Notes: generated by a model not told the origin, from the letters alone. A DNA stretch of 64,000 nt from a virus (IMGVR_UViG_3300030490_000001), one strand, 5' to 3'. Positions 1,717-57,251 are shown, counted from the stretch's first letter. Numbers and translations: made by a program.

Positions 1717-1726
1717 GGTCGTGACA
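1717..1726 (+). promoter_or_regulatory. TCGTGAC-core motif site 2
   Basis: Reads ttttgGTCGTGACAccacc. There are 15 nt to ATG 1742, and no SD. Confidence 0.6.
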
Positions 1727-1741
1727 CCACCATGACGACCC

Positions 1742-2245
1742 ATGGGAACCAAACCACACATCACACCCCGGACGCCGGGCTCGACGCCCTGGCGCGCATC
1801 AACTCTGCGCGACCGAGTCACCGGTGCACTGACCCGACTGAGTCCGGCGACCCGCGATGAGTTGGCCGCGTACACCGGCGATCCGCGTACGGAAGTCGAC
1901 GCCCTTATTAATGAGTTGCTGGTCGACGGCCTGGTCGTCCCGGTGCTCGACCGCTACCGCTACAAGTCTCCGCGCGAGCGATACGAGCGCCAGGTCACCC
2001 TGCATGACGGCACTGTTGTCGGGTCATGGTCGCCGGAGTGGAACACCGAACTTGAGGGCCGCGCCGTGCTGCGCATGCCCACAAAGATGCACCGCCAGGG
2101 ATACCTGATTCGCGTTCGAGAGAGGCGCGGCGACGCGAGGGCGAACGCGATGGAGGAGCTGTTACTGCGGATCTTCCGTTCCTCCCGCGCTGCCCGTGAC
2201 CCCGCCGGTGAGTCCGCCATGGACTCATCCCATGGCTCCGAATAA
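1742..2245 (+). CDS. hypothetical early protein
   Basis: 167-aa ORF, the first plus-strand gene after the structured non-coding block. Motif site 2 ends 15 nt before the ATG, and there is no SD. Confidence 0.5.
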   Translation: MGTKPHITPRTPGSTPWRASTLRDRVTGALTRLSPATRDELAAYTGDPRTEVDALINELLVDGLVVPVLDRYRYKSPRERYERQVTLHDGTVVGSWSPEWNTELEGRAVLRMPTKMHRQGYLIRVRERRGDARANAMEELLLRIFRSSRAARDPAGESAMDSSHGSE

Positions 2246-2290
2246 CTAAACCACGTCGTTTCATAAACCCCCTTCCCATAGGTCGGGGGA

Positions 2291-2330
2291 TATGATCAAA
2301 TTTGATCAAGTTAATCATATTTGATCAATA
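2291..2330. promoter_or_regulatory. GATC-centred palindromic operator cluster upstream of gene 2345
   Basis: GATCAAATTTGATC is a perfect 14-bp palindrome at 2294-2307. ATCATATTTGATCAA follows at 2314-2328. Confidence 0.55.
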
Positions 2331-2344
2331 GAAGGGGCAACACC

Positions 2345-2866
2345 ATGACCGCACGCGAAGCCAAGACCATTCCCGCCGGTGCCATCTCCGACATCATCGC
2401 CGGCCTGAATGTCGTGCTGGCTCCGCTGGACGCCGAGCGCCTGGTGCGCTCCCAGGAATGGGCGCAGCGTCGGTGCAATGCCCTGGTCGAGTTCAAGGCA
2501 TCCGAGGAAGGCCAAGCACTGCGCAATAACCAGTGGGCGTACTACCGCAAGCTGTTCGAGCTGTCTGGCGGAAAGACCTGGTACAGCGTTTTCGGTGGCG
2601 GCTACGGCCCGAGCGTGGCTGACTTCATGGTCAAAAACTGCGCCGCCGCCAAGGACAAGCGCAACTGGAAGATCGCCAAGTACCTGATCGACGCCGGTGT
2701 CACCTCCGTGACGTCCTCAACCTACGCGCGCACCAGCGACGGCTATGACGGCACCTTCACCGTCATGACCGACAAGGGCGATAAGACCGTCTACGTCCGC
2801 TCGATCTACGCAGGCGGCTACAACATCCAGTGCCTGCACATCCGCGTGCTGGTCAAGGTGTACTGA
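2345..2866 (+). CDS. hypothetical early protein
   Basis: ORF 2321-2866 trimmed to ATG 2345 (MTAREAK..), which has AAGGGG 7 nt upstream. GATC palindromes lie directly upstream. Confidence 0.55.
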   Translation: MTAREAKTIPAGAISDIIAGLNVVLAPLDAERLVRSQEWAQRRCNALVEFKASEEGQALRNNQWAYYRKLFELSGGKTWYSVFGGGYGPSVADFMVKNCAAAKDKRNWKIAKYLIDAGVTSVTSSTYARTSDGYDGTFTVMTDKGDKTVYVRSIYAGGYNIQCLHIRVLVKVY

Positions 2867-2867
2867 G

Positions 2868-3143: not shown

Positions 3144-3144
3144 C

Positions 3145-5830: not shown

Positions 5831-5840
5831 AGTCGTGACG
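5831..5840 (+). promoter_or_regulatory. TCGTGAC-core motif site 3
   Basis: Reads gccaaaAGTCGTGACGccatag. There are 33 nt to GTG 5874. Confidence 0.6.
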
Positions 5841-5873
5841 CCATAGTACCCCGACCAATTAGAGGGGTACACC

Positions 5874-7387: not shown

Positions 7388-7413
7388 TAGCGCCTAGCAC
7401 ATGAGTGCAGAGA

Positions 7414-7440
7414 AGCCCCGGTAAATCCGGGGCTTTTTTT
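7414..7440 (+). terminator. rho-independent terminator
   Basis: AGCCCCGG taaat CCGGGGCT forms an 8-bp stem followed by T7. Confidence 0.8.
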
Positions 7441-7451
7441 CGTTCTGGTTA

Positions 7452-7461
7452 AGTCGTGACC
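7452..7461 (+). promoter_or_regulatory. TCGTGAC-core motif site 4 (orphan, with no co-oriented gene downstream)
   Basis: Reads ggttaAGTCGTGACCatagc. A half-copy GGCGTGACACC follows at 7471-7481, then the alternating Pu-Py tracts, then the 3' end of the convergent primase gene. Confidence 0.5.
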
Positions 7462-7502
7462 ATAGCATCAGGCGTGACACCCTCATGAAGTGAATGTATG
7501 GC

Positions 7503-7561
7503 TACACGTGTGCGCGCCTGCGGACGCGCGCATGTGCGCATGCGTGTGCGCGCGTATGTAT
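7503..7561. repeat. two perfect alternating purine-pyrimidine tracts (15 nt and 38 nt; Z-DNA-prone)
   Basis: 7503-7517 reads tacacgtgtgcgcgc. 7524-7561 reads acgcgcgcatgtgcgcatgcgtgtgcgcgcgtatgtat. I checked the alternation base by base. Confidence 0.8.
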
Positions 7562-7587
7562 CAAATATGATTGGGCGCTGTCAACAC

Positions 7588-10431
7588 CTATAACAACTCG
7601 CTTTCACTCTCGACCGAGCGACCGCCGAACCCAATCAGCTCCAGCGGCAACGTGGTTACGCGCGTCTTGATGCCGTTGAACTTGAGCTGCTTTCCAGCTC
7701 CGTTACCAGCGCCAGGCAGTCGTGAGAAGGCCGCGCGCGGGTCGGTGGCGAATGGAGTGCCGGCCAGCAGCTTACGTATCGCGCTGGCGGAGTTGGATAG
7801 CGCCAGCTTTGTGCCGTCCAGTGCTATTCCATGCTGCCTCAGTTCGGTTCGCGCCTGGCGCCCTTCCAGGGTTCGGCCCTCCACCTCCTCGCCAAGCGCA
7901 AAGCTGATCAGGTTGTGCACGCTGTGCTTTGTGCCCATGACCATGATGAATGACCCCATCAGCTCCTCCAGTGCACTTTGCGAGTCGTCAGACTCTGCCT
8001 GCTCGGCGTACTCAGTCCAGTCGAACTGATTCATAAAGGCGAGGGCCTGCTCATCCGTCACCAGACCGGAGTTCATCAGCGACCAGGCGCCAGCCATCAT
8101 GGTGCCGTACTGATCGCCGTCGCGCTGGTTACCGAACTTGGCTGCAGCCACTTTGGTGAAGGTGTCGATGTTCTGCAGGACGATCGGCATCATGTCGATC
8201 ACGCGCCGCAGCATACGCCCACGCAGGTCCGTATCGCGCTCCATCCAATGGAGCTCATCCTTGACCTTGACCCAGTTGGCCGCCGCGTCAGGGTCGCCGC
8301 GCGAGGTCCTGAGCGTGAGCACCGACAAGCGGTCGATGTCGGCTTTCTTGTCCATACCAACGTAGATCGATGCAAGGCAGAACATGCTCCTGACGTGGAA
8401 CGCCATGCCGCTACCGGATATGGTGCCCTTGAGTGTCTTGGCATCCGACTCGCTCGACGACTGGCGGATCAGCGAGAGCATGTTTTCTATGCGCGCGGTT
8501 TCGCGCTCGCCATTGGATTCAGCCTCGTCAAGTAGCACGGGGACGGACGTGGAGCCGATCGCTTGCCGTACACCTGACTCCGTCGAGTTTCCTTGGGCGT
8601 ACTCGCATGCCTTCTTTCCAAGGAGGGCGTATACGTACCGCTGCATAATGGTTGACTTACCGTTACCGGCTGGGCCGGTGAGCCATACATGGGGGCGCCA
8701 CTTGAGCGCGCCACATATCGGAGACAGGAACGTCCAGCCGGCAAGCAGTGCTGCCGATGAGTCGCGTTGCCAGCGGAACATTTTTGATACGCCAAAGAGA
8801 CGCTGACCCTCCTCGTCGGAGAGTGGGGTATCGGATGGAGGAGGGAGCGGGAGGGTTTGCTCATATACGTATTCCGACTTGATCTCTGTAACGTCCATCC
8901 TGGCACCGTCGACGCTCAAGTAGCTTCCATGATGAAAGACATGACGACCCTTGTCGGTCCAAGCGCCGCCGGCACGTACGCGGGCGCGGTCGTAAATCCC
9001 GCGCCGGTGAGCGGTGCGGATAATGAAGTTGGCTGCAGCGTTGACGTTGCAGCCATTCTTGCCGGGGAAGTGGATTTCCCACCACTGGAGATCGGCAATC
9101 TCCATCAGGCCAGACATGGAGAATGACCCGCGCGTGTAGTCCATGATCTGCTTTTTTTCGTGCAGGAAAATGAAGTACAGATCGCGGTCATAGCCGAGGA
9201 TGGTGAAGCCGAGTTGCTCCTCAAACTCGCGCGCAGCCAGGTCGGCCGCCTCGTGCTGGGTACGTGCCTGCCTAGGCGCCTGGGGAACCTCGCGCGCTGC
9301 CTCGCTGAATTGCGGCTCACCCTCCCATGGCAGCGGTTCATCGGACGTGAGTGGGTCCTTGGTCTCCGCTTCCGGTGGGTACAGCACGGCATTGATACAC
9401 GCTTCGACGTCGGCCAGTCCCTCGCGAGCGTGCAAATCGTTGAAGTCGGTGGGCTTGCCATCCAGGTCATCAAACTGCGGTATCGCGACCAGACCACCGA
9501 CCGCATGCGCGGCCTTCGTGGCGTAATGCACGCCCGGGTTGTTGACCGGTATGACCGTGAACTGGTCGTTGTCGGCCGCAAACAGGATCAGGGCATCTGG
9601 GAACTTGGCGCGGATCGCCTCGCCTACTGGCTGCAGGTTAGCCGAGTCGAACGCCACCACAACGGCATGGCCGGTCGCCTCGTGAATGCTGGAGCCAGTG
9701 GCGAAGCCCTCGGCGACAACGAACAGGAACTTCCCGTCTGCGCTCTTTTTCGGCTGGCCGATCGGAAAGAAGTTTCCGCGCTTGGCGCCGCCAGTTAGGT
9801 AAAGCTTTGGGAACTTGCCGTCATCGCCCGGCTTGGCAGGGATGGCCTGAATAGAGTGCGTGGCCTTGTTGAAGTCGCGAAGCTGGATAAGCAGAGCTTT
9901 CCGGTAGGTGAACTTGACCTCACCAGTGTCCTTGTCGAACACGGGGAAGTCGCCGACGCGTGCGCCGGATGCATTGATGCCCTTGAGCCCAAGGTACCCA
10001 TGCGACCCGTCTGATGGCGTGGCGTCATTCCAGATACCGGCAGCCAGCTTGGCCTTTTCCGCGCGCTCATCGCGAATTTTCTCATCGCGTTCCGCCTGGC
10101 GCGCCTTCATGTCAATTTCAAGCTGCTTGCGCTCATCGGCGCTCATCGGCACGCGGTCGGACTGCGCGGGCTTCCACGTGAAGGCGTGGTCAGTACCGTA
10201 GCGCTTGTTGCAGCCAAAGGTGCCATTAGGGTGGCTATCCGCATGCAGCTTGTACCAGCCGGTGCCGGACTTTTTCTTGTCGCCCGCTACGTCGTACCGC
10301 TCAAGCTTGCCGCTGGCGATGATCGTCTCATGGCTCGCCGGGCCGATACCTTCATCGCACATCGCATCGCGGAACTGCGCGATGATTTCGATCTCGGAGA
10401 GCATTGGTGCTCGATTATTCTTATGGTCCAT
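7588..10431 (-). CDS. bifunctional DNA primase / SF3 (D5/P4-alpha-like) helicase
   Basis: 947 aa. A Toprim-like acidic motif (LILFAADNDQF) lies in the N-terminal half. The C-terminal half has the Walker A motif GPAGNGKST and LLDEAE. Size and layout are typical of phage/plasmid primase-helicases. Confidence 0.88.
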   Translation of the reverse strand: MDHKNNRAPMLSEIEIIAQFRDAMCDEGIGPASHETIIASGKLERYDVAGDKKKSGTGWYKLHADSHPNGTFGCNKRYGTDHAFTWKPAQSDRVPMSADERKQLEIDMKARQAERDEKIRDERAEKAKLAAGIWNDATPSDGSHGYLGLKGINASGARVGDFPVFDKDTGEVKFTYRKALLIQLRDFNKATHSIQAIPAKPGDDGKFPKLYLTGGAKRGNFFPIGQPKKSADGKFLFVVAEGFATGSSIHEATGHAVVVAFDSANLQPVGEAIRAKFPDALILFAADNDQFTVIPVNNPGVHYATKAAHAVGGLVAIPQFDDLDGKPTDFNDLHAREGLADVEACINAVLYPPEAETKDPLTSDEPLPWEGEPQFSEAAREVPQAPRQARTQHEAADLAAREFEEQLGFTILGYDRDLYFIFLHEKKQIMDYTRGSFSMSGLMEIADLQWWEIHFPGKNGCNVNAAANFIIRTAHRRGIYDRARVRAGGAWTDKGRHVFHHGSYLSVDGARMDVTEIKSEYVYEQTLPLPPPSDTPLSDEEGQRLFGVSKMFRWQRDSSAALLAGWTFLSPICGALKWRPHVWLTGPAGNGKSTIMQRYVYALLGKKACEYAQGNSTESGVRQAIGSTSVPVLLDEAESNGERETARIENMLSLIRQSSSESDAKTLKGTISGSGMAFHVRSMFCLASIYVGMDKKADIDRLSVLTLRTSRGDPDAAANWVKVKDELHWMERDTDLRGRMLRRVIDMMPIVLQNIDTFTKVAAAKFGNQRDGDQYGTMMAGAWSLMNSGLVTDEQALAFMNQFDWTEYAEQAESDDSQSALEELMGSFIMVMGTKHSVHNLISFALGEEVEGRTLEGRQARTELRQHGIALDGTKLALSNSASAIRKLLAGTPFATDPRAAFSRLPGAGNGAGKQLKFNGIKTRVTTLPLELIGFGGRSVESESELL

Positions 10432-14186: not shown

Positions 14187-14240
14187 CCATCACAAAGCGC
14201 GGATTTAAGGGAGGGTCCGCGCCCTTCGGGCTGTCGTGGG

Positions 14241-14286: not shown

Positions 14287-14290
14287 TGAA

Positions 14291-47586: not shown

Positions 47587-48216
47587 TTACGCCGACAGCA
47601 CCTTGCGCACGATGGCCTGATCGATTGCGCCGATCTGGTTCATGCGTACAGCGACGTCGAGGATGTTCAGCTCGCGACCGGTCAACTTGCCGGCGTCGAA
47701 AGCTGCGTGTGACTTGAGCATGAAATGCTCGCCGGTCATGCCTTCGCCTTCTGACTTGGCGAGCACGGCCGTGCCTTCGTTTTTCTGATTGACAGTGATG
47801 ACAGTCTTGCGACCGCGACCCTGACCACCGAGGACGCGCAGCTCATCCGACATGGACTTGAGCATCTCGCCCTGAGACTTGATCGTGCCGACTAGATGCG
47901 ACAGAACGCCGGTGAACTTCACGTCCGTGCTATCCATGCGATCGACGAGCGACTTGACCAGAAGTGTGCCGTCGATTGCGGCGATCTCAGTGCCATCGTC
48001 CAGCTTGATGGTGCCAAGCGACTTGGTCAGCGCATCGCCATCTTCGTCGCCTTCCTTGGTGACGGCCTTGCCGTCTTTCTTTACGCCATCGACGGTCTGG
48101 GTAGTCTTGTCGTCGTCGTCGGTTTTCTCACCGCCGTCGACATGCGACTTGGTGAGTGTTTCCTGATCCGTCTTGATCTGCTCCAGCTCGGACAGGAGAG
48201 TGTCGAAATTGCTCAT
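47587..48216 (-). CDS. scaffolding protein
   Basis: ORF trimmed to ATG 48216 (an ATGA overlap with the protease stop). It is acidic and helical, and lies between the protease and capsid genes. Confidence 0.6.
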   Translation of the reverse strand: MSNFDTLLSELEQIKTDQETLTKSHVDGGEKTDDDDKTTQTVDGVKKDGKAVTKEGDEDGDALTKSLGTIKLDDGTEIAAIDGTLLVKSLVDRMDSTDVKFTGVLSHLVGTIKSQGEMLKSMSDELRVLGGQGRGRKTVITVNQKNEGTAVLAKSEGEGMTGEHFMLKSHAAFDAGKLTGRELNILDVAVRMNQIGAIDQAIVRKVLSA

Positions 48217-49103
48217 GACTTGCTCCGTTGTGTGATTCCAGTTTTCAAATCGCGCGCGAAGCGCTCTACCCATTCCGCCGACTTCTCAATCGGGAGACTG
48301 AATTTGGTGTGTGCGTGACGGGCCATGTCTTTCATGGACGGGTCATCGCCCAACGTGCCCGCGCTAAGATCAGCAGCAAGCGCATTGCGAAAATCGAGGT
48401 ACTTTTTGATGCCGTGGTCCAGCGACTGATGGCCGAGCGCACCGCCGCCGGTGAGCGCGGAGACGTCCGTGCTTGAGCTCGCCTCCATCGCCTTGGCAAG
48501 ATCCAGGCCGCCGACTCCCCAGCACTTCGCCAGGATGTCGAACGGTACCGTCGCGACAGTGGCGACGTTCTGATTCACTGGCGTACGGCTAAAGCCGATG
48601 TTCGACCAGCGAACCTTTTTGACGATCGCTTTCTTGAGCTGCGTTGTCGGATCGATCTCTACGTCGCGAGCCAGGACGGCGCCGCCCACGGACGGGTACC
48701 ACTTGGCCGGCGGATTGCGCTCGGTCATCGACGCCCAGAACTGGTTGCCCTTGTCGGCAGCCGGGCCGTCCCCGGAAACGATCTCGCCTTTGACGAACGT
48801 CTTGTCGCGGTTGAACGTCACGTCGACCGGGTGACCGATCTCGAACTGGCTATAGTTGGGGATGCCAACCTTGGCGCCAATCATCGTGATGTGATCGATG
48901 TCCAGGTTGCCGTACTTTTTGAAGTACGGCGCGCTATCTTGCAGCGCCTTTTGGAGCACGACTTCATTCTGCGCGTCAGTCGTCTCGTCGCTCGCCTCGA
49001 TATACACGTAGCGCTTCTCACCCTCTTGAAATGGTGTCGCTTTGAGCATCGATCCGATGCTCAAGTATTCGGGTGATGCTGCGAGAATTTCGCGGTCGTT
49101 CAT
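48213..49103 (-). CDS. XkdF-like prohead protease
   Basis: ORF trimmed to ATG 49103 (MNDREIL..). YVYIEASDETTDAQNEVV...AL...A..F.KYGNLDIDH resembles XkdF-type putative proteases. Motif site 14 ends 14 nt before the ATG. Confidence 0.55.
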   Translation of the reverse strand: MNDREILAASPEYLSIGSMLKATPFQEGEKRYVYIEASDETTDAQNEVVLQKALQDSAPYFKKYGNLDIDHITMIGAKVGIPNYSQFEIGHPVDVTFNRDKTFVKGEIVSGDGPAADKGNQFWASMTERNPPAKWYPSVGGAVLARDVEIDPTTQLKKAIVKKVRWSNIGFSRTPVNQNVATVATVPFDILAKCWGVGGLDLAKAMEASSSTDVSALTGGGALGHQSLDHGIKKYLDFRNALAADLSAGTLGDDPSMKDMARHAHTKFSLPIEKSAEWVERFARDLKTGITQRSKS

Positions 49104-49117
49104 AGCAACAATTTTCG

Positions 49118-49127
49118 TGTCACGACT
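49118..49127 (-). promoter_or_regulatory. TCGTGAC-core motif site 14
   Basis: Reads gcaaataAGTCGTGACAcgaaaattgttgctATG. There are 14 nt to ATG 49103, and no SD. Confidence 0.6.
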
Positions 49128-49153: not shown

Positions 49154-49735
49154 TCACGCATGCTTCGCCCCCGCTACTTCGTCAGGAGTGAACACGAATC
49201 CGCTCTTGCGCGGGAACGCCTGGAATCCCCAGGTGGGCGCAGTGCGGTGATGGATGCCGTGCGTCGGCGAACGATGGAACTTCGCATCGAGCGGCAGCAT
49301 GTTCGCCATGGAGTCGACGAACGTCTCCGGCTTTTTTGGATCGAATGCGGCCCAATCGAATCCGCGCGCCGTCGTGAGCTGGATGACCAGGTAGATCAGC
49401 GACTGCTCGACGGGGAACGTCTCGCCAGTGGGCTGATCGGTGATCGGATCGAGGACGGGGAGCGCCGTGATTTTGCCTGTAGCAACGCCCTTTACGGTCG
49501 CCCAGTCGATCGCGTCGGCGAAAGCCCATTCGCAGAACACGTGATGATATTCGGGGTGCGCCTGGCCGCTTACGGCGCAGACGAGGCCGGCCTTGTGGCC
49601 TGCGGTCTTGGTATGGCGGAACGTTGCGGACTCGCCTCGCGGCGCTGCGTGGTCGGGGTAATACTCGACCTCAGCCTCACTGGATTTTGCCAGATGCTCA
49701 TGCGCCTCGACTGGCGCGACAGCAGTGTCTTTCAT
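49154..49735 (-). CDS. His-rich, possibly HNH-like protein
   Basis: 193 aa. CAVSGQAHPEYHHVF and NMLPLDAKFHRSPTHGIHH loosely fit a beta-beta-alpha-Me/HNH layout. This is a weak call. Confidence 0.4.
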   Translation of the reverse strand: MKDTAVAPVEAHEHLAKSSEAEVEYYPDHAAPRGESATFRHTKTAGHKAGLVCAVSGQAHPEYHHVFCEWAFADAIDWATVKGVATGKITALPVLDPITDQPTGETFPVEQSLIYLVIQLTTARGFDWAAFDPKKPETFVDSMANMLPLDAKFHRSPTHGIHHRTAPTWGFQAFPRKSGFVFTPDEVAGAKHA

Positions 49736-49766: not shown

Positions 49767-49774
49767 GAGTTTCA

Positions 49775-49784
49775 TGTCACGACT
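49775..49784 (-). promoter_or_regulatory. TCGTGAC-core motif site 15
   Basis: Reads gagaataAGTCGTGACAtgaaa. It overlaps the stop codon of the 1271-aa gene by 1 nt. The hairpin follows, then ATG 49735. Confidence 0.6.
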
Positions 49785-52700
49785 TATTCTCCCAACATCT
49801 CCAACGCCTTTTGCAGCGTGTTGGATTTCTGCATGGCGGTCACGATCTTGTCGATCGCCGCGTTGATGCGCTGACGTTCCTCGCCCTCGGGAAACGGCTT
49901 CTGATCGCCAAAGAGCGGATCACGGTAATACTTGTTGTCGGCCTTAGCTGAGAGGTAGTCATTGCGACGACCCTTATCGGCGAGGCGGTCCTCGATCCAG
50001 CCCTGGAACGCGCGCGCGGCCATCTCTTCGGTCGTGGCCCAGTATTTCGCGCTACCGCCGTCCAGCTTGGTCGCCTCCAGTGCGAACGACGACATGGGCT
50101 TGCCACTATGCACCTTGATCTCACCGCCCTCGGCGTTGCCGCCAAAGTGCGCGTGCGCGAGAGTCTTCCAATCGCCGGAGATCTTTTTCGTGCGGCGGGA
50201 CGCGCTCGATTCCTTGCCGCCCTCGGTGTTGAAGTGCCGGTCCAATCGCTGCACGGCATCGTTCACGTTGGCGGACTCCTTGATGATGGCGAGCGGCCCG
50301 GTCTTTGTGAAGCTCTCCCGACTCATGACGCGCTTTGCTTGTGCGTGATCCTGTGCCGTGTAGGCGTGCGTGTTGGATATGCGCAGGCCGCCCTCCCACA
50401 TCACGTGACGGAAATCGGCGAACGCGTCGCGCAGCTCACCCGGCGGCAACGCCTCGGGGGTTTCGGTGGCAAAGGTGTCCTTGTTGACGGCCTGGACCGT
50501 CTCAGCCTCGGCGATCATGTTGTCCAGCGCGTGGAACCATTCATGACCCAGTGCGCCGCCGCCTCCCAGCTTGGTGAGGTTGATCACGCGCTGCACGGGT
50601 TCATAGTGAGCGCGGGCCGCGCCGCCGAAACCAGCATTGCCGGTGCCGCGCGCGCCAAACGCCAGCGCAAGGCGGCCGTTCAGCGCGATGGTTTTGTCAT
50701 CGGCACCGAGCAAGTCAGCTAGATCCGCGAAAGCGGCAGCAGACTGCTCCGTGTGGAACTTCGCGCTGACCGGGTCGCGCAGTACCCAGTTGCCCGACTG
50801 CACGTCGCGCAGGCCGAACGCATCCTTGAGTTCCATGGTCGATTCGGGAGTGACGGTACGGCCGCCGACGCGCTCATAGGAGTCCGCTACCTGGAGCTGG
50901 AACCGTTGCCCCTCTTTGGTGATCTTCGGTGCACGCGTGATCTCTTTCTCTGCCCACGACCAATCCTTGACCTTGCCGGCCCTGGCGGACGCCATGTGAT
51001 TGGCGAATGCATCGGAACCCTTGGCGCGGCGATAGCGCAGGACGCCGATGAAGCGATCGCCCATGGTTTGCCACGCGCGGTGCAGCGGGTTTTCGGTCTT
51101 GTTGCGCACGTGCGCCGCGAGCGCAATGGCGCGTTGCTGGCTGGCGATGGACTGCCGGCGCGAGCTGATCTCGTCGCGACGCGGCTTGCTAGAGTGGAGC
51201 TTTTCACTCCAGGCTTCCCATGTCTTGTCATGCTCAGCCTTTGCATCAGCGAGTGCAGCGTGGTGTTCTGGCTTGATCTCCCAACCACGGCGCTTACGCT
51301 TACCGATCTCATGCTCGGCCGCGTACTGAACGGCCTTCTGTTTTTGTGCCAGCGCATAGAGCGGGTCAGCCTCCGCATCGAGTGCGCGGTATTCGCGGAA
51401 CAGGTCGTGGTTTTCCTGCGCCAACTCCTCGTACACCGCCGATTCCTCGGCGTTGAGGATGGTGCCGTCGTACTCCTCTTGCAGATCGGACAGAACCTCA
51501 CTTACCTCCTCGGTAGTCTTGCATGACTCCAGCCGATCGCGCAGCGTCTGCAGGCCGAGGGTGTAATCCTTCCGGGCCTGCGGGCTTTCATGGCTCGGCT
51601 CCGTGCCGATGGCCGCGTAGATTCGGTCGATGATGAATCCAGTGCCCGGGTCCATGCCGCCGTCGCGCAGCGCAGTCCAATCCACTGCGCCGAACAGATT
51701 CGACTTGGTGATCAGGTCTTTCGCTTCACGCGGGTTCTGCTCGATCTGCTCCCAGTTGATCGCCGTGACGTATACGCGCGCGCCCTCGGCCTTGGCGACC
51801 TTGATGACCTGCTGCGCGGTAGCGAGCTCTTTGCGCGAGCCGGACACGTAACCGGTATCGGCGTAGCGGTAATTCTTACTGTTGGGATTGTCGACGTCAT
51901 CGATGTCCTGCGATGCCGGCTCGACCTTCGGCCTGGATGCTCCGCGCTTCACCTTGCGCTCGCGCAGGCCAAGCTCGCCGAGTACGTCATCGCGGGTGAG
52001 GCCGAGCGCATTAGCCAGGCCATCGATCACCGCGACCGGCTGCGACTTCACGCCAGGCGTATCGAGGCCCCCGTGAAGCTTGATCGCTTCCTGCAGTGTC
52101 GCCGCGAGCTGCTCACGACCTCCCATCTGCTCGATCTTGTCGCGCAGCTTCTGGAGATTCATCTCATGCTGGTCGGGCTCTGTAGCGGGCACTTCATCCT
52201 CACCAGCGACATCGTGCGCCACCTCACGCAGCTTGGCCTTTGCTTCATCGCTGTGCGGGTCTTTCGCGAGCGCGTCGGCAAGCTCCTGGCGCTGCACGGA
52301 CTCGGCATCGGTCGGCGCTGCCTTGGCTTGCTCCTGCTTGTGCCAGCGGCCGTCGCGGAACACGAGCGTGCCATCAGCGCCATCCTTGGTTTCTCCATCC
52401 TTTGGGCCATCGGGATCGGAACTGGGATCGTCTTTCTCTGCGCTCTCCACATCATGGCCGTGCCGTTTCGCGAATGCGACGGCCTCGGTGGCCGTGTCAA
52501 ATGTGTTTTTCTTCGGCCCGAACCGCTCGCCGAACTGCTTTCCGGCCTGGATCTGCTCAGGGGTCGCATCCTTGTAGTGGATTTCATCCGGCACGCGACC
52601 GACGTAACCGAATTTGCCATTCGGGAACTTGACCACGTGCAGGCCTAGGCCACCATTCTTGTCCAGGGTCGGCACGACCGGCCCCTTGCTTGCAGCAGCG

Positions 52701-53599
52701 GCAGCGGCATCCGCTTCGCTCAAGGTTCCATCCTTCGACTTCGCCTGCATGGCCGCGTGAGCAGCGATGGCACGCTGACGGCTGGCCTCGCTTGCCGTTT
52801 CAACGGCAGCAGCCAGTGCATCAATGGCATCTTGCTGCGATGTGAGATCGTACATCTGCTCGATGTCATCCGACTGCGGGATGACGAACCAACCGCTCCG
52901 ATTGCGATCGATGATGCCGCCATGTACCGGATTGGTGTTGGTGATCAAGCCATCGACGCTACCAGTCCAGCCATCGGGCAGCTTGCGCGGCTCCGCCTTG
53001 GGTTCTGGCTTCGGCTCAGGCCTTTTCTCTGGCTCAGGAACGGGCGCCGGCTCGGCCACCTTCGGCTCCTCTTTCGGCTCCTCATGTGCAGGCAGATGCT
53101 TCTCGCGGATAAACCATCCGCCGTCCTTTTTGAACGTGTACGGATCGATGTCCGTGGCCGAATCCTTGTCGAGGTCGCGACGCACGATGCCGCGCAGGGT
53201 CTTGCCCTTGCCGGTGACGTGCTCGACGATCTCGTGCTTGTCTGGCTCAGCCTTTGGTGCGGTCTTGGCCTCGTCGTGCATACCGAGGCGTTCCATGATG
53301 GCGTTCGGCTCGATGCCGTCAATGTGCGCCATGGCGTCGATCAGCTTGGCGCGCTGCTCAGGCTTCATGTCCGACAGCTCATCGCGCATGCGAGCCGCGC
53401 CGCCATGCTTCTCGATGAATGAGTCAAGGCGCGTCGGCTCAGCTTTCTGCGACGCGGCATGCGCGTGCGCCTGGTGCGGCTGCATCGACACTTTCTGCAT
53501 GCGCATGTGAGGCTTCACATACGTGCCATCGGGATTGTAATGACCGGCCACTTGGACCGGCATACTGATGAGCGGCGAGGACTTCGTGAAAAATATCAT
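49784..53599 (-). CDS. large polyvalent virion-associated protein with a zincin-like HExxH motif
   Basis: 1271 aa, multi-domain, with Lys/Glu/Pro-rich linkers. LGGGGALGHEWFHALDN contains HEWFH. It lies in the head module next to MuF, as described for phage polyvalent proteins. Confidence 0.7.
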   Translation of the reverse strand: MIFFTKSSPLISMPVQVAGHYNPDGTYVKPHMRMQKVSMQPHQAHAHAASQKAEPTRLDSFIEKHGGAARMRDELSDMKPEQRAKLIDAMAHIDGIEPNAIMERLGMHDEAKTAPKAEPDKHEIVEHVTGKGKTLRGIVRRDLDKDSATDIDPYTFKKDGGWFIREKHLPAHEEPKEEPKVAEPAPVPEPEKRPEPKPEPKAEPRKLPDGWTGSVDGLITNTNPVHGGIIDRNRSGWFVIPQSDDIEQMYDLTSQQDAIDALAAAVETASEASRQRAIAAHAAMQAKSKDGTLSEADAAAAAASKGPVVPTLDKNGGLGLHVVKFPNGKFGYVGRVPDEIHYKDATPEQIQAGKQFGERFGPKKNTFDTATEAVAFAKRHGHDVESAEKDDPSSDPDGPKDGETKDGADGTLVFRDGRWHKQEQAKAAPTDAESVQRQELADALAKDPHSDEAKAKLREVAHDVAGEDEVPATEPDQHEMNLQKLRDKIEQMGGREQLAATLQEAIKLHGGLDTPGVKSQPVAVIDGLANALGLTRDDVLGELGLRERKVKRGASRPKVEPASQDIDDVDNPNSKNYRYADTGYVSGSRKELATAQQVIKVAKAEGARVYVTAINWEQIEQNPREAKDLITKSNLFGAVDWTALRDGGMDPGTGFIIDRIYAAIGTEPSHESPQARKDYTLGLQTLRDRLESCKTTEEVSEVLSDLQEEYDGTILNAEESAVYEELAQENHDLFREYRALDAEADPLYALAQKQKAVQYAAEHEIGKRKRRGWEIKPEHHAALADAKAEHDKTWEAWSEKLHSSKPRRDEISSRRQSIASQQRAIALAAHVRNKTENPLHRAWQTMGDRFIGVLRYRRAKGSDAFANHMASARAGKVKDWSWAEKEITRAPKITKEGQRFQLQVADSYERVGGRTVTPESTMELKDAFGLRDVQSGNWVLRDPVSAKFHTEQSAAAFADLADLLGADDKTIALNGRLALAFGARGTGNAGFGGAARAHYEPVQRVINLTKLGGGGALGHEWFHALDNMIAEAETVQAVNKDTFATETPEALPPGELRDAFADFRHVMWEGGLRISNTHAYTAQDHAQAKRVMSRESFTKTGPLAIIKESANVNDAVQRLDRHFNTEGGKESSASRRTKKISGDWKTLAHAHFGGNAEGGEIKVHSGKPMSSFALEATKLDGGSAKYWATTEEMAARAFQGWIEDRLADKGRRNDYLSAKADNKYYRDPLFGDQKPFPEGEERQRINAAIDKIVTAMQKSNTLQKALEMLGE

Positions 53600-53625: not shown

Positions 53626-53635
53626 CTCATTGTCG

Positions 53636-53645
53636 TGTCACGATT
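53636..53645 (-). promoter_or_regulatory. TCGTGAC-core motif site 16 (variant AATCGTGACA)
   Basis: Reads gtgtAATCGTGACAcgaca. It is part of the palindrome TCGTGtCACGA. The hairpin follows, then ATG 53599. Confidence 0.5.
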
Positions 53646-53661: not shown

Positions 53662-54186
53662 CTAGGCGGCGCTACTCATGAACAGGATAACGGTGGACAT
53701 ACCCAATCCTTTGATCATTGCAGGGGCTTCATTGGTATCCTTCACCTTGCGCACGAACTCATCCACCGGCATCGCCGTAATGGGTCCAAGGAAGCGCGGG
53801 TCGCTGTAGTGCTGCAGATAGGCTGCGCGGGCATCCACGTCGTTTTCAAAGCCGATCATGCATTTGTCTTCATCGTAGTTCGCCCAGTCGCCCGCCTTGC
53901 GCTGGTGCACGATGTAGACCATTGGTGCGGCCAGATTCGGCCCTAGGTAGACGTCAACTTCGTCGCCGTCGACCGCCTCGGATCGCTTGATATAACCGTA
54001 GTCGTGGAGCATCTTCGTCTGCCAGCCTTTGCCGGTGCGAGTGCTGCCAACGGGGTTCTCGATCGCGATGTCCAGGCCCTTCCACTTCACGACGGGCTTG
54101 CGGTAATTACCGGCGCGGGCCTGGGCGTCAGTGGGTTTGACCCACACCTCGCCGCGCACGTGCGACTTAGTCAGCATGCTTGGCAC
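53662..54186 (-). CDS. inorganic pyrophosphatase-like domain protein
   Basis: 174 aa. IENPVGSTR and DGDEVDV match the family I PPase signature D-[SGDN]-D-[PE]-[LIVMF]-D-[LIVMGAC] as I remember it. Confidence 0.5.
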   Translation of the reverse strand: MPSMLTKSHVRGEVWVKPTDAQARAGNYRKPVVKWKGLDIAIENPVGSTRTGKGWQTKMLHDYGYIKRSEAVDGDEVDVYLGPNLAAPMVYIVHQRKAGDWANYDEDKCMIGFENDVDARAAYLQHYSDPRFLGPITAMPVDEFVRKVKDTNEAPAMIKGLGMSTVILFMSSAA

Positions 54187-55321
54187 TCAGGTTGATGCGC
54201 AGCCACTCGGCGAACGCTGGGTCATCACCGGGCTCCGGCTTGATCTCCGGCAGCCAGAATCCACGGCAGCTCGGATGCTGCACACCGGAGGCCGGCCACC
54301 ACATCTGGTCAGGGTCGCGCTCGACCAGCACGCCGTCGACGCGCTGACGCGGCGCTGCTGATCGGCCGATGTTGGTCTTGCCGGGCCACACCTGTTTCCA
54401 CCCATCCTTATCCGGCGCACCCGGCTCGACGACCTCGAACACCATGCCATCGATCTTGCGGCAGAACGCGCACGCGCCGGTGTAGTGCTCCCCGCGCTTA
54501 ACGTGGTCGCCGGGGCTCATCATGGCGATGTAGCCCTGGTTGGAATTCTCAACCGACTCGGTCACCGCGATGCGACGCCAATCGCGGTTGAGGGTACCAA
54601 ATTGCTCCAGTAGATCCTGTTGCAACTTTCCGGGGTCGAGCACGCCGAGTGCCCGCTCCTCGGTTCGCTTCATGACCAGCATGCGCATGCGGTGACGGAC
54701 ATCATCAGCGACGCGTTGCACATTCTCCACCGTGTGCGCGGTCGCGTATTCAAGCACCGCATGCTGCGTCGGAAGCATCGGGAACGTCGACGCTGCGCCG
54801 GCCACGGTGGTAGGCAGCCTTTCCATCAGGGTATCGGCCTGCTGCAGCGACAGATCCTGCATGTTCGCCTGGACGCGACCCATCAGCGTGGAGCGCACGC
54901 CAAGCCACTCGGCCTCGGTGCGCATATCACCCACCGGGAGGTAGCGCTGCACCAGGTAGTCGACCAGCATCATGCCGTCTTCAAGCGTGAATGCATCGGC
55001 CGGCACGTTCGCCAGATACATTTTCACCAGGCTGATTTCCGCCGATGTCCAGCGCTGCATCATGCCGGCGGGGATCGGGCCGCGCGATCCGCCTGCGTAC
55101 TTCTCATTGTTGAGCCACTGGGCCAACTCGCTGCGGAATCCTTCCAGGCGCATCAGGCCGCGCTGCGTGAATAGCTCGACCATACGTCGCAGGAACGGGG
55201 AGTTCATCTGCGCCCATATGGCGTCGTCGTCGGGATTATCGGTGAGCGCCTTGAATAGGCTTTCCAGCGCGCATTCGCACTGGTCATCACTGAGCTTGCT
55301 GATATCGAGTAGATGAGACAT
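54167..55321 (-). CDS. MuF / SPP1 gp7-like head morphogenesis protein
   Basis: 384 aa. IAVTESVENSNQGY and the CAFCRKIDG segment are typical of Phage_Mu_F. It lies directly downstream of the portal gene. Confidence 0.7.
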   Translation of the reverse strand: MSHLLDISKLSDDQCECALESLFKALTDNPDDDAIWAQMNSPFLRRMVELFTQRGLMRLEGFRSELAQWLNNEKYAGGSRGPIPAGMMQRWTSAEISLVKMYLANVPADAFTLEDGMMLVDYLVQRYLPVGDMRTEAEWLGVRSTLMGRVQANMQDLSLQQADTLMERLPTTVAGAASTFPMLPTQHAVLEYATAHTVENVQRVADDVRHRMRMLVMKRTEERALGVLDPGKLQQDLLEQFGTLNRDWRRIAVTESVENSNQGYIAMMSPGDHVKRGEHYTGACAFCRKIDGMVFEVVEPGAPDKDGWKQVWPGKTNIGRSAAPRQRVDGVLVERDPDQMWWPASGVQHPSCRGFWLPEIKPEPGDDPAFAEWLRINLSAKHAD

Positions 55322-55334
55322 GCAGGGAGGTTAC

Positions 55335-55344
55335 CGTCACGATA
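55335..55344 (-). promoter_or_regulatory. TCGTGAC-core motif site 17 (variant TATCGTGACG)
   Basis: Reads attttttATCGTGACGgtaacctccctgcATG, directly after the portal terminator T-run. There are 13 nt to ATG 55321, and no SD. Confidence 0.5.
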
Positions 55345-55381
55345 AAAAATCGCCCGCGCTTGCATCCGTACAGCGCGGGCG
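55344..55381 (-). terminator. rho-independent terminator after the portal gene
   Basis: CGCCCGCGCT (11-nt loop) AGCGCGGGCG forms a 10-bp stem. On the minus strand it is followed by ATTTTTT, which runs straight into motif site 17. Confidence 0.75.
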
Positions 55382-55428
55382 GGTACTGCTGGCGAATAGC
55401 TTTCCTTGCCTTCCTCGCCCTGGGTTCT

Positions 55429-57228
55429 TTACGGATCGATCGTGAATATCGGTAGACCAAAGGACTTGGTCATATCGTCCGCACCTTCCTGCTCATTTGC
55501 ATCGTCTACGTTGTCGGTGTCTGTATCGCTTGTTTCGCCTGACTTCGGCGCCTTCGCTGGCTTGACTTGCTTTGCGGGCGCGGCCTTCGGCTTGGGATTT
55601 TTCTTTCCGGTGGCTTTGCCGCCCGTGGCATCGCCGCCGGCCGCGCCGGGCTGGTCGCCACCCTCGTCGCCAGGCTGTGGCGCCATCCCCTGCTCCATCT
55701 GCCAGACGCCAAGCAGCGCCGGATTCACGGGAGCGTCGCCCATCTTGCTGCCCTTAACCGGCCACGGGTCGTAGCTTTCCTGCGCGCGGATTTCATCCAC
55801 GGTCAGTACCAGCTTGCGCATTTCCTGGCGTGCCTTGTCGTCCTCGGGGTCGAGGCCGGTAAAGCGGAACACGTAATCCGGGGAGAATTCCTGCACAATG
55901 TAGTCGGAGAAAAGATTCTCGTAATACGTAAGCAGCGGGCGAAGGCCCTTGTCCTTGGAGTTGGTGATTTTCTCATCGGTGTCGGAGCCGGATAGGCTAG
56001 ACGTGCCGGCGCTGAACGACTCAAAGTTAATCTCATCCGGCGCGATGCTGTAGAGCGCGCAGATGATGGACGTGAGAAACGTCATCCACTTCGCGAACAT
56101 CACATCGTCGACGTCAACGCCGAATTTCTCGAACTTGGCGGAGCTCTCCTGATCCTTGGACACCATCACGGGAAGCGCCCATGAGTTGTTGATGCCCTTC
56201 ACCATCGCGTTCCAGTACCGCTTGAACGCATTCATGTCCCTTTCGTCATAGTTGCCCGACAAGTGGAGCATGCCCTTGGGGATGGCGTTCGAGTCAAAGA
56301 ACTTGGTGTTATAGCTGAACGCATTGAGGAAACCCGTTACCACGCGCACGAGCAGCTCGGTCTCACTCACGCCATAGCCGCCGACCACGATGCTTGTGCA
56401 CGGGTTGCGCGGCACATAGATGAGGTCGTTGTAGGTATATGCCGAGCGGATACGGCCCTGCACGACCTGGAGCGCGAAAATCTCGTCGTCGCCCTCATAG
56501 CCGTCTTCCGTACATAGGCGGATGGTGGCGCCGTCGACCGCATACATGCCATCCAGGCCTAGATTCCGATTTCGCTTGAACTCGGTCTCGATGGGCATCG
56601 AGTCCATCGTCAGGGTGTCGCGGGTCAGCTTCGCCATGAAGCTGGAGAAATCGTCGCGTTTCAGACGCTGACGCTGACGCGGGCGATTCTCACGGCCGCA
56701 ATTCAGGAAAAAGTCCTGCAGGGCCTGGATCGAGCCTTTCTGGTCGGCGCCAACTTCCTGGTTGACGTCCTTGGTCTGGACTTGGAAGCCAGGTCCTCGC
56801 ACGCTCGATGGTGGCCGGCAGAACCGCTGCACCTGGCGCTGGCGCGTCATGATGATCGCGCTAAGGATCGGGGTCTGATCAACCATCGAACGAGCGGCGT
56901 CGAAACCAAAAGCCGAGGGCTTCTCGTAGTAGTCGCCCATGGTCGATACCTGCATGTCGTCGATCCAGACCGACTGCATACCCGCCTCGTGATTCTTAAC
57001 CGCCTTGGACGGGAACGGAATCACGTTCGGCTTGGAGAGCGCCTTCGCTAGCTGCTGCTCCTCATACTGATTAGAGATCCAGTTGATCGCCTCGCGCACG
57101 TCCGCGCCGGGCAGCAGATCGCCAAGGCCGCGCGGCATGGTGGATTTCTGCAATTCGACATTAGCCTGCGCCCGCTCATCGGCGGGGGCTGCGTCGTTGT
57201 GGGCAGTAACGAGGGCGGATTCCTTCAT
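55429..57228 (-). CDS. portal protein
   Basis: 599 aa, the first gene of the late operon and followed by MuF. It has an acidic/Gly-rich C-terminal tail. Size and context are typical of portals. Confidence 0.8.
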   Translation of the reverse strand: MKESALVTAHNDAAPADERAQANVELQKSTMPRGLGDLLPGADVREAINWISNQYEEQQLAKALSKPNVIPFPSKAVKNHEAGMQSVWIDDMQVSTMGDYYEKPSAFGFDAARSMVDQTPILSAIIMTRQRQVQRFCRPPSSVRGPGFQVQTKDVNQEVGADQKGSIQALQDFFLNCGRENRPRQRQRLKRDDFSSFMAKLTRDTLTMDSMPIETEFKRNRNLGLDGMYAVDGATIRLCTEDGYEGDDEIFALQVVQGRIRSAYTYNDLIYVPRNPCTSIVVGGYGVSETELLVRVVTGFLNAFSYNTKFFDSNAIPKGMLHLSGNYDERDMNAFKRYWNAMVKGINNSWALPVMVSKDQESSAKFEKFGVDVDDVMFAKWMTFLTSIICALYSIAPDEINFESFSAGTSSLSGSDTDEKITNSKDKGLRPLLTYYENLFSDYIVQEFSPDYVFRFTGLDPEDDKARQEMRKLVLTVDEIRAQESYDPWPVKGSKMGDAPVNPALLGVWQMEQGMAPQPGDEGGDQPGAAGGDATGGKATGKKNPKPKAAPAKQVKPAKAPKSGETSDTDTDNVDDANEQEGADDMTKSFGLPIFTIDP

Positions 57229-57241
57229 ATGTAAATGGTGC

Positions 57242-57251
57242 TGTCACGACT
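57242..57251 (-). promoter_or_regulatory. TCGTGAC-core motif site 18 (portal side of the divergent pair)
   Basis: Reads catAGTCGTGACAgcaccatttacatATG. There are 13 nt to portal ATG 57228, and no SD. Confidence 0.65.

Follow-up and report, generated by a model that had tools for sequence, protein, structure and literature searches.

We analyzed a 64,000-nt stretch of viral DNA (IMGVR_UViG_3300030490_000001; by the window we mean this whole stretch) and determined that seven of its genes have an ATG start codon 14–16 nt downstream of an octamer, GTCGTGAC (read in the direction of the gene), which forms the core of a 16-nt element, GTCGTGAY-NN-NANNNT. The fixed spacing, together with the conservation of this arrangement among related phages, makes it likely that the element is a phage-family promoter giving rise to leaderless mRNAs, mostly for virion proteins that are expected to be of low copy number.

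In the mechanism that we propose, GTCGTGAY-N2-NANNNT would be the promoter of this phage lineage: the hexamer NANNNT would act as the −10 element of a sigma-70-family promoter, GTCGTGAY, at −22 to −15, would replace the missing −35 element, and the whole would presumably be read by a phage-encoded specificity factor acting with the host RNA polymerase. Transcription would start 7 (occasionally 8–9) nt after the hexamer. At the seven genes, the mRNA would begin with the AUG or within 1–2 nt of it and would enter the leaderless translation pathway; the remaining copies would represent the same promoter at the head of predicted leaders no shorter than 19 nt, mostly with a normal Shine-Dalgarno (SD) sequence.

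A 16-nt element at a fixed distance from seven start codons

The octamer GTCGTGAC is present in 23 exact copies in the window, compared to 3.19 expected, and none of 100 shuffled sequences reached this count; eight of these copies fall within genes. For GTCGTGACNNNANNNT, 13 copies were found where 0.20 were expected. When one mismatch in the core was permitted, 20 full elements were identified, 16 of which are intergenic, and all 16 are either aligned with the strand of the downstream gene or located in a gap. Alignment of all copies revealed two additional near-invariant bases, an A at the fourth and a T at the eighth position after the motif. To describe these positions across the phage family we used a comparison set of 16 genomes and genome fragments (165 core-motif sites, 92 elements), which the addition of the phages ST4, Mecenats66 and fHe-Yen8-01 enlarges to 19 (103 elements). 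Among the 165 core-motif sites, the A is found in 62%, the T in 65% and both in 56%, compared to about 4% expected. Upstream of the motif the 92 aligned sites contain no informative column, and hence no conserved −35 element; an A/T run precedes the motif in the window copies and is missing in the relatives.

The spacing of the A and the T makes NANNNT look like a sigma-70-type −10 hexamer in which A−11 and T−7 have been kept, the two bases that are flipped out and bound by sigma region 2; if NANNNT is the −10 hexamer, GTCGTGAC is placed at −22 to −15. Compared to a canonical sigma-70 promoter, the −10 element with A at −11 and T at −7 is present, and the −35 hexamer (TTGACA-like, 16–18 bp upstream) is absent. 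A scan for consensus sigma-70 promoters gave three matches in 19 kb, with 5.0 expected, none of them near these gene starts. Nor is the element an extended −10 promoter, as there is no TG at −15/−14: position −15 is taken by the C or T that ends the motif, and most sites have a G or an A at −14.

On the minus strand, the element GTCGTGAC-AG-CACCAT (57235–57250) has a spacer of 14 nt, counted from the end of the octamer, to ATG 57228 of the portal gene (55429–57228), which leaves a predicted leader of 0 nt; the element upstream of the portal gene is kept in 15 relatives. The minor head gene (54167–55321, minus strand) is preceded by an element with one mismatch, ATCGTGAC-GG-TAACCT (55328–55343), with a spacer of 14 nt to ATG 55321. 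Spacers of 15 nt separate GTCGTGAC-AC-GAAAAT (49111–49126) from ATG 49103 of the protease gene (48213–49103) and GTCGTGAC-GC-GATCAT (42787–42802) from ATG 42779 of a head-to-tail adaptor-like gene (41943–42779, 278 aa), both on the minus strand. Back to back with the latter element, on the plus strand, lies GTCGTGAA-GG-TAAAGT (42817–42832, octamer 42817–42824, one mismatch), 15 nt upstream of ATG 42840 of a gene for a 259-aa protein (42840–43619); the two divergent ATGs are 60 bp apart. The gene for a tail-tube-initiator or baseplate protein (32165–33421, minus strand, 418 aa, Pfam PF23980) follows GTCGTGAC-AT-GAAAAT (33428–33443) with a spacer of 14 nt to ATG 33421. Finally, a plus-strand gene for a 167-aa protein with a winged-helix-like part and DUF7696 (1742–2245) follows GTCGTGAC-AC-CACCAT (1718–1733) with a spacer of 16 nt to ATG 1742, and is a candidate for a leaderless mRNA or one with a leader of 1–2 nt; the six other genes are candidates for leaderless mRNAs. 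The two back-to-back pairs of elements in the window lie only 14 bp (42802/42817) and 30 bp (57250/57281) apart, and elements are also placed directly after terminator hairpins with a T-run (7413–7445 and approximately 55345–55381, the second of which is followed by the element of the minor head gene).

An initial, sequence-only reading of the window had pointed to six of these genes, and all six sites were found where it had placed them. Its fixed short spacing was borne out, but its count of 13–15 nt had evidently been made from a nine-base motif (GTCGTGAC+R); from the octamer, the spacers are 14 (ATGs 57228, 55321 and 33421), 15 (49103 and 42779) and 16 nt (1742). The site before 55321 carries the one-mismatch form ATCGTGAC. 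The reading had missed the seventh site, before ATG 42840. The label MuF that it gave to the 54167–55321 product found no confirmation, since this protein has no Pfam or PHROG match and the annotation of its homologues goes no further than a minor head or particle-associated role; the gene at 32165–33421, called a baseplate gene, encodes a protein whose Pfam match is to the tail-tube-initiator family.

In all seven genes, the A of the ATG lies 7–9 nt past the hexamer and NANNNT begins 12–14 nt before the ATG, so that the predicted leaders are 0, 0, 0, 1, 1, 1 and 2 nt long. At a spacer of 14 nt, this A is precisely base seven past the hexamer, the canonical +1. With the ATG at the predicted transcription start, there would be no room for an SD sequence. 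Over the whole window, predicted leader lengths are bimodal, being either 0–2 nt or at least 19 nt, with none in between; this is the distribution expected of mRNAs that begin roughly 7 nt past the hexamer and carry the ATG either at the 5′ end or behind an SD-sized leader.

Consistent with the earlier observation that six of the genes lack an SD sequence, the spacers of all seven contain no GGAG, GAGG or AGGA, and the energies of their duplexes with the anti-SD sequence range only from −2.4 to −4.0 kcal/mol, compared to −7 to −15 kcal/mol for genes with a clear SD (for example those starting at 14775, 28891, 39906, 57322 and 62226). The genes for the major capsid protein, the sheath and the tube have purine-rich, SD-like stretches (−5.4, −6.5 and −8.2 kcal/mol, respectively). 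However, the median for the other genes of the window (at least 100 aa) is −3.3 kcal/mol. Since weak SD sequences are therefore common in the window, a missing SD is not diagnostic alone, and it is the fixed spacing that is diagnostic.

Several observations support the positions of the start codons. At a spacer of 14 nt, the motif's TGA precedes the ATG by six codons in the same reading frame, which makes an N-terminal extension impossible for the portal, minor head and 33421 genes, as well as for 33 of 47 sites of this type in the phage family (see below). Two genes with a spacer of 15 nt have in-frame upstream GTGs, at 42839 and 49157, and these were picked in the list of open reading frames (ORFs). 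Homologues in the phages Jeremy, PHB04 and ECML-606-1 and in L005 and L015, however, align from residues 19–22 of the GTG-initiated ORFs, which correspond to ATG 42779 and ATG 49103; for the protease in particular, they align from residue 19 of the ORF starting at GTG 49157, i.e. from ATG 49103. GTG 42839, which the sequence-only reading had named as a possible alternative start, is thus contradicted by the homologues, and it would also overlap ATG 42840 of the divergent gene. The 33421 protein has a 29-residue insertion near its N terminus relative to its homologues, and the only alternative starts before the conserved region are three TTGs, with no SD evident by inspection (they were not scored). 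The start codon is ATG in seven of seven genes of the window and in 47 of 47 family sites.

Conservation of the element among related phages

The nearest cultured relatives of the phage in the window are myoviruses of 86–95 kb, several of which have an integrase. They include the Pseudomonas phages Jeremy, Dolphis and Touem01, Bordetella phage PHB04 (Phabquatrovirus), Escherichia coli phage ECML-606-1, Enterobacter phage phiT5282EW, Aeromonas phage ST4, Yersinia phage fHe-Yen8-01 and Morganella phage Mecenats66; further relatives are a Microvirga lupini prophage, contigs of Steroidobacter and Acetobacteraceae metagenome-assembled genomes (MAGs), and a dozen IMG/VR contigs. Their portal proteins are 50–74% identical to that of the window, and their hosts span the Alpha-, Beta- and Gammaproteobacteria.

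Among the 92 elements of the comparison set, an ATG is found at offsets 14, 15 and 16 in 31, 11 and 2 cases, respectively, compared to 0–7 at any other offset from 8 to 39, and a GTG is found at none of these three offsets (0, 0 and 0). In the enlarged set, 47 of 103 elements have downstream an ATG at which an ORF of 80 aa or more begins, the spacer being 14 (33 sites), 15 (12), 16 (1) or 18 nt (1); the A of the ATG most often lies 7 nt past the hexamer (33 sites), followed by 8 (12) and 9 nt (1). Moreover, a pyrimidine directly precedes the ATG in 45 of these 47 sites (C in 38, T in 7), compared to 24 of 47 other genes of the window, which fits the preference of bacterial RNA polymerase for start sites with a pyrimidine at −1 and a purine at +1.

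In an alignment of 15 portal upstream regions, from phages whose hosts include Pseudomonas, Bordetella, Aeromonas and Microvirga as well as the Steroidobacter and Acetobacteraceae MAGs, only GTCGTGA, the A at +4 and the ATG are invariant, and the flanks are unconserved. Orthologues of the minor head gene (54167–55321) in PHB04, L003, L006, L008 and L011 have the same motif with a spacer of 14–15 nt to the ATG, and the orthologue of the adaptor gene has the leaderless-like arrangement in Jeremy, ECML-606-1, ST4, fHe-Yen8-01 and Mecenats66. Deposited start codons match the predicted ATG for the portal, protease, adaptor and polyvalent protein genes of Jeremy; for the portal, minor head protein, helicase-like giant protein and protease genes of PHB04; for the adaptor genes of ECML-606-1 and fHe-Yen8-01; and for the protease and adaptor genes of ST4. 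Two other deposited starts appear to be placed too far downstream: homology and the element would move that of the Jeremy (L019) tail-tube-initiator/baseplate gene from 25667 to 25607, and that of the ST4 (L025) portal gene from locus position 20091 to 20001.

In the window, Jeremy, ECML-606-1, ST4 and fHe-Yen8-01, 59–63 bp separate the adaptor gene from its divergent neighbor, and this gap holds two elements placed back to back; Mecenats66 has a gap of 35 bp, in which the adaptor-side element alone is evident. The neighbor (the gene at 42840 in the window) is leaderless-like in the window, Jeremy and ST4, with a spacer of 14–15 nt. Its orthologues in ECML-606-1 and fHe-Yen8-01 are SD-led, with a leader of 10–13 nt: a stretch of 17–19 nt follows the promoter, and its GGAGG or GAGGGG begins approximately at the expected transcript start. 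The protease promoters of the same two phages (L021 23131–23177 for ECML-606-1 and L027 3726–3772 for fHe-Yen8-01) are followed by a mini-ORF, ATG-TTT-TGA, at a spacer of 14 nt, and then by an SD and the annotated ATG; this mini-ORF may be the remnant of a leaderless start or a coupling device. In our view, the leaderless reading is well, if indirectly, supported by this comparative sequence evidence.

A second conserved element, CAAAAAAGATCAA (with the variants CAAATAAGATCAA and CAAAAATGAACAA), was observed approximately 35–45 nt upstream of the portal promoter in L006, L011, L015, Jeremy and PHB04 (L022). It is absent from the window, where the divergent promoter occupies that place.

Alternative explanations and the putative reader of the element

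Several points weigh against a promoter for leaderless mRNAs. The hexamer is weak apart from A−11 and T−7, and its first base is mostly C rather than T. The product of gene 1742, the one with a spacer of 16 nt, has no homologue with an alignable N terminus, so that its start is predicted from the ORF and the element. In L009, L010 and L016, there are a few orthologous sites at which the ATG lies 10–11 nt past the hexamer, which would imply leaders of 2–4 nt or a flexible start. For one copy of the element in the window, that before ATG 53599, the predicted leader measures 23 nt and shows no evident SD, and the absence of an SD is therefore not limited to the leaderless geometry. Although these virion genes are essential, hosts of the E. 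coli type translate leaderless mRNAs inefficiently. Finally, Pfam and PHROG scans of window and Jeremy proteins pointed to no protein as the reader of GTCGTGAC.

An alternative, which we consider unlikely, is that the octamer itself is either a −10-like element, recognized by a phage sigma factor or one resembling the extracytoplasmic-function (ECF) sigma factors, or the core of a promoter for a single-subunit RNA polymerase; transcription would then start 6–8 nt past GTCGTGAC and produce fixed, SD-less leaders of 6–9 nt. Indeed, no other part of the element is as well conserved as the octamer, CGT or GTC is often present in ECF −10 elements, GTGACAC is similar to a stretch of the SP6 promoter, and the A/T run before the motif in the window is reminiscent of the AT-rich upstream part of T7-type promoters. 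However, this explanation does not account for the near-invariant A at +4 and T at +8 with their −10 spacing, for the pyrimidine/A at the ATG, or for the one fixed distance of the ATG. Furthermore, an ECF-type promoter would require a conserved −35 partner, of which there is none, no single-subunit RNA polymerase is annotated in the complete Jeremy genome, no sigma domain was found among 64 non-structural Jeremy proteins, and the A/T run is missing in the relatives.

Considerably less probable still is a role of the motif in the RNA of longer or polycistronic transcripts, as a processing site, as the site of a translational factor or, as the sequence-only reading had suggested, as a substitute for the SD. 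In favor of such a role, GUGAU/GUGAC is complementary over 4–5 nt to AUCAC of the 3′ tail of 16S rRNA, which explains a residual −2.4 kcal/mol, and the late genes form one long co-oriented block in which read-through transcripts are plausible. Yet the portal gene and the genes at 42779 and 42840 have no co-oriented upstream gene, and since the divergent motifs are only 14–30 bp apart, there is no room for separate promoters that would transcribe them. In addition, elements lie directly after terminators, the motif is also found 33 to approximately 140 nt upstream of other genes that have their own SD, and the conservation of an A and a T fits DNA melting rather than RNA pairing. We reject the motif as a stand-in for the SD: the promoter geometry would leave it untranscribed, a distance of 14–16 nt is too long for SD function, and SD-led genes share the motif. 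The suggestion of leaderless or very short-leader mRNAs, made in the same earlier reading, agrees with the hexamer, the spacing, the pyrimidine, the exclusive use of ATG and the conservation, but its proposed start inside or just after the motif does not, as the geometry points to the ATG, about 15 nt past the motif.

That we are dealing with a neutral repeat, such as a word connected with methylation or restriction, and that the true starts lie elsewhere, as might be argued from the approximately three copies expected by chance, the eight exact copies within genes and the in-frame GTGs upstream of two of the six genes, is hardly credible given an enrichment, orientation, intergenic placement and spacing that are conserved across 19 genomes with unconserved flanks, the in-frame TGA that blocks upstream starts at a spacer of 14 nt, and homologue N termini that match the ATGs.

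Four known promoter types were also compared with the sites and discarded. If the motif were a −35 element (GTGACA resembling TTGACA, with the −10 element 17 bp further on), a conserved hexamer would be expected at +19 to +24, where there is none, and transcription would start inside the genes. The sigma-54 pattern (GG-N10-GC) has a spacing that is off by one, and its GG and GC are unconserved outside some enterobacterial members. In a sigma-32-like promoter (CACCAT resembling CCCCAT), the upstream element should be 13–15 nt away and not 1–3 nt. For a single-subunit polymerase promoter, suggested by the partial likeness to SP6, no such polymerase is annotated in Jeremy or evident among the largest ORFs of the window.

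Returning to the promoter for leaderless mRNAs, the question arises of what reads its element. No RNA polymerase is annotated in the complete Jeremy genome and no single-subunit one is evident among the largest ORFs of the window (primase-helicase, helicases, tape measure and LPD1 polyvalent protein). Among 64 non-structural Jeremy proteins, none matched a Sigma70 region at E ≤ 1e-3, a search that very divergent sigma factors such as gp55 of phage T4 would escape; the window proteins scanned likewise yielded no sigma factor. With no phage RNA polymerase annotated and no sigma factor found, the host polymerase would have to be used, and the conservation of the motif among phages whose hosts belong to three proteobacterial classes suggests that the factor is encoded by the phage. 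This reader may either bind at −22 to −15 as an activator or be a highly diverged sigma factor. Twenty non-structural window proteins scanned against PHROG and ten against Pfam (overlapping sets) were uninformative in this respect; none of the 20 matched any PHROG family of annotated transcriptional activators, and no homologue of Lpa of phage P1 was detected among the proteins scanned. Taken together, the scans of window and Jeremy proteins brought up only HU, an HTH_17 protein, DUF7696 proteins and an AraC-family protein, the last present in Jeremy, PHB04 and ST4; none of these is tied to the motif.

A pair of early genes on the minus strand (253–1076) that is conserved in the window, Jeremy and ECML-606-1 was also considered. 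It encodes a Cys-rich 181-aa protein with four CxxC motifs (531–1076) and a 93-aa zinc-ribbon protein (253–534). The family of the Cys-rich protein comprises 849 representatives at 50% identity, the longer of which sometimes have an N-terminal MarR-like winged helix. The protein has no Pfam, PHROG or PDB sequence-profile match, a PDB fold search gave nothing at E < 1, and its AlphaFold model has a mean predicted local distance difference test (pLDDT) score of 65. As a candidate specificity factor, the pair was set aside; nothing links it to the motif.

In Jeremy, full elements are mainly found in the structural, lysis and polyvalent-protein modules, so that the element behaves there as a late promoter; in the phage of the window, it also precedes replication and accessory genes. 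With respect to the genes that it would serve without a leader, we take the portal, minor head, protease, adaptor and tail-tube-initiator proteins to be of low copy number; a putative regulator and the 259-aa protein also belong to the set. The abundant capsid, sheath and tube proteins, in contrast, have the clear SD-like stretches given above. In bacteria such as E. coli, translation of leaderless mRNAs is relatively poor. Combining this with the low-copy set, we speculate that an ATG at +1 is a means of obtaining low output from a strong shared promoter; leaderless initiation would probably help to keep the output of this set low. More tentatively, as a possibility that we would not favor but consider worth stating, a phage protein that is not sigma-like would retarget the RNA polymerases of E. 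coli, Pseudomonas, Bordetella and Microvirga to the −22/−15 element, which would make it a host-independent promoter class; the placement of the ATG at +1 or behind an SD leader would set virion stoichiometry gene by gene, and leaderless translation would be a regular and essential process in phages of Proteobacteria.

If 5′ ends lie where we predict them, essential virion genes would routinely be leaderless in Proteobacteria, in which such mRNAs have been deemed rare and inefficient, and a compact, portable promoter of 16 nt without a −35 element would function across three proteobacterial classes, which would imply a specificity factor worth finding. In practical terms, the element provides a rule for correcting start-codon annotation, as at least two deposited records appear to hold truncated genes, and it accounts for the failure of SD surveys and SD-based gene callers to pick up anything at these genes. 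With culturable members that infect E. coli, Pseudomonas putida, Bordetella, Aeromonas and Yersinia, the reading is directly testable; particle proteomics is already part of the fHe-Yen8-01 annotation, and, should it be true, the E. coli phage ECML-606-1 could allow the promoter to be dissected and reused as an orthogonal expression module.

Further copies of the element and known promoter systems

The window has a G+C content of approximately 60% and is 89.5% coding and 10.5% non-coding; it contains no tRNA and no Rfam match at the gathering threshold. The source phage genome is roughly 95 kb, with approximately 30 kb outside the window, and the same sequence is also present on metagenome contigs of 88–120 kb, plus one of 225 kb. 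The minus strand carries a myovirus-type structural module, and replication and recombination genes as well as two integrases are also present. The module includes the portal protein (55429–57228, 599 aa, matched by PHROG portal families, with homologue N termini beginning at residues 1–3), the minor head or particle-associated protein (54167–55321, 384 aa), an LPD1 polyvalent protein (49784–53599, 1271 aa), an HNH endonuclease (49154–49735), the head maturation protease (48213–49103, 296 aa from ATG 49103, matched by a PHROG protease family), the major capsid protein (46034–47545), the sheath (39921–41660), the tube (39469–39906) and the probable tape measure, a large ORF homologous to the Jeremy 'lytic transglycosylase' (35825–38701), all on the minus strand, as are baseplate genes within the module. 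A second integrase (58334–59374) and an O-acetyltransferase (59669–60901), both on the minus strand, sit between phage modules; as the counterpart of 58334–60901 on another contig of the same phage (L033 4897–7772) has a different integrase and extra genes, this region is variable and moron-like.

The other copies of the element that precede genes in the window have predicted leaders of 19, 19, 20, 23, 26, 36 and 116 nt, most with a clear SD. Those on the plus strand are located at 5832–5847 (predicted 20-nt leader with the SD AGAGGGG, GTG 5874), at 57281–57296 (predicted 19-nt leader with AAAGGGG, ATG 57322; divergent from the portal promoter at a distance of 30 bp) and at 62088–62103 (predicted 116-nt leader, ATG 62226), and SD-led copies on the minus strand are located at 24199–24214 (predicted 36-nt leader, ATG 24156) and 28917–28932 (predicted 19-nt leader with GGAGG, GTG 28891). 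Between the minus-strand copy at 49768–49783 and ATG 49735 of the HNH endonuclease gene, the predicted leader is 26 nt long and has a hairpin at its 5′ end. The ATCGTGAC variant at 53629–53644 (minus strand) precedes the 23-nt leader mentioned above and ATG 53599 of the LPD1 polyvalent protein gene; the promoter here lies 37 nt upstream, a second CACAAT is located 9 nt before the ATG, and the Jeremy orthologue is leaderless-like. Beyond the window, further copies elsewhere in the same phage nearly all precede SD-led genes.

Two core motifs with an incomplete or unrecognizable hexamer also lie upstream of genes: that at 14651–14658 (plus strand, hexamer TACAAA) precedes an exonuclease gene with ATG 14775 and the SD AAAGGGGG, and that at 1112–1119 (minus strand, without a recognizable hexamer) lies 35 nt upstream of ATG 1076 of the gene for the Cys-rich 181-aa protein, which has the SD AAGGGG. 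The element at 7453–7468 (plus strand), located after a strong terminator, has no obvious downstream gene and points into the 3′ end of a convergent primase-helicase gene. Beyond this element lies an imperfect palindrome, long and rich in GC (approximately 7490–7560), with a fold energy of −57 kcal/mol, and the region 7453–7600 (plus strand) may give rise to an antisense RNA or have another role. At 14292–14299 (minus strand), a core motif with the hexamer TCAAAT (the T at +8 being present and the A at +4 absent) is directly followed by a strong hairpin (−40.9 kcal/mol) and seven Ts, which would suit either a short RNA or an attenuated leader of a helicase gene. Promoter-like copies followed by a strong hairpin and a T-run were observed at 14225–14299 (minus strand), 21929–22000 (plus strand) and 39405–39469 (minus strand, the copy at 39462 with a terminator at 39439–39416), as well as in Jeremy (30000–30046, where the order is promoter, hairpin, T6 and ATG); they may represent short RNAs or attenuators that need antitermination.

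The surroundings of two elements deserve mention. Directly 5′ of that at 1718, the sequence CGTCCCCCT is repeated four times (at 1618, 1674, 1686 and 1698, spanning 1618–1706), the last three with a period of 12 nt; these look like operator or iteron repeats. The HNH gene (49154–49735, minus strand) lies between two near-identical promoter copies, AATAAGTCGTGACAyGAAA, at 49776 and 49119, and it looks as if a mobile endonuclease gene has been inserted just behind the protease promoter, duplicating a promoter copy or bringing one with it.

Literature searches, using the motif and the names of related phages, turned up no paper that describes this promoter or reports leaderless genes for the PHB04/Jeremy/Mecenats66 group. 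Known systems share individual features with it. Extended −10 (TGn) promoters also lack a −35 element and compensate for it with upstream contacts; here, however, −15 and −14 are C and R and the conserved block reaches −22. The late promoters of T4, which depend on gp55 and gp33, have a single extended −10-region element, TATAAATA, at approximately −10, no −35 element and many copies, and use a phage specificity subunit on the host core polymerase; T4 late mRNAs have SD leaders. The lack of a −35 element and the presence of a phage-specific one are thus alike, but the predicted leaderless output differs, and no gp55- or sigma-like protein was detected among the 64 Jeremy proteins.

The P1 late promoters, of which many copies precede late operons, combine a −10 hexamer with an inverted-repeat element centered near −22 in place of the −35 element, and they need a phage DNA-binding activator together with the host RNA polymerase; P1 late genes are not known to be leaderless. 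A phage-specific element near −22 and the absence of a −35 element are common to both systems, but the sequence of the element differs. The P1 factor, Lpa, is a sequence-specific DNA-binding co-activator that acts with SspA (PMC1891329). Unlike the late-operon placement in P1, the element described here also precedes replication and accessory genes.

With respect to leaderless genes, a known example is the lambda cI mRNA transcribed from PRM, which is leaderless, has its −10 box approximately 12 nt upstream of the start, begins with AUG and lacks an SD; GUG and UUG work poorly as leaderless starts. In bacterial genomes, the hexamer TANNNT approximately 12 nt upstream of the start codon marks leaderless genes, which account for about 39% of genes in Deinococcus-Thermus and for a few percent in a minority of proteobacterial genomes (PMC3160421). 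The leaderless genes of Actinobacteria and Deinococcus-Thermus share with the genes described here a −10-type hexamer that begins 12 nt before the start, the lack of an SD and the AUG (PMC3160421). However, they use ordinary housekeeping-sigma promoters, whereas here there is an extra 8-bp element and no −35 element, and the arrangement is a feature of a phage lineage across three proteobacterial classes.

The Thermus Lalka phages, such as Lalka27a, are temperate and have sixteen late promoters, almost one per gene, including back-to-back divergent pairs; these promoters consist of a −10 element TAGGGT and a conserved C at −25, without a −35 element (preprint 10.64898/2026.04.20.719267). Mapping of 5′ ends revealed that the transcripts are mostly leaderless, starting at the A or G of the start codon, and the authors infer a phage factor that modifies the polymerase (preprint 10.64898/2026.04.20.719267). 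The Lalka portal protein is approximately 35% identical to that of the window. The signals differ, TAGGGT with a C at −25 in Lalka compared to GTCGTGAY at −22 to −15 with NANNNT here, and so do the hosts, as leaderless mRNAs are used routinely by Thermus and rarely by Proteobacteria; in the phages described here, only a subset of genes is predicted, from sequence, to be leaderless. Together with Thermus phage phiYS40, with which we group them, the Lalka phages represent the closest known system in which late promoters are combined with leaderless mRNAs.

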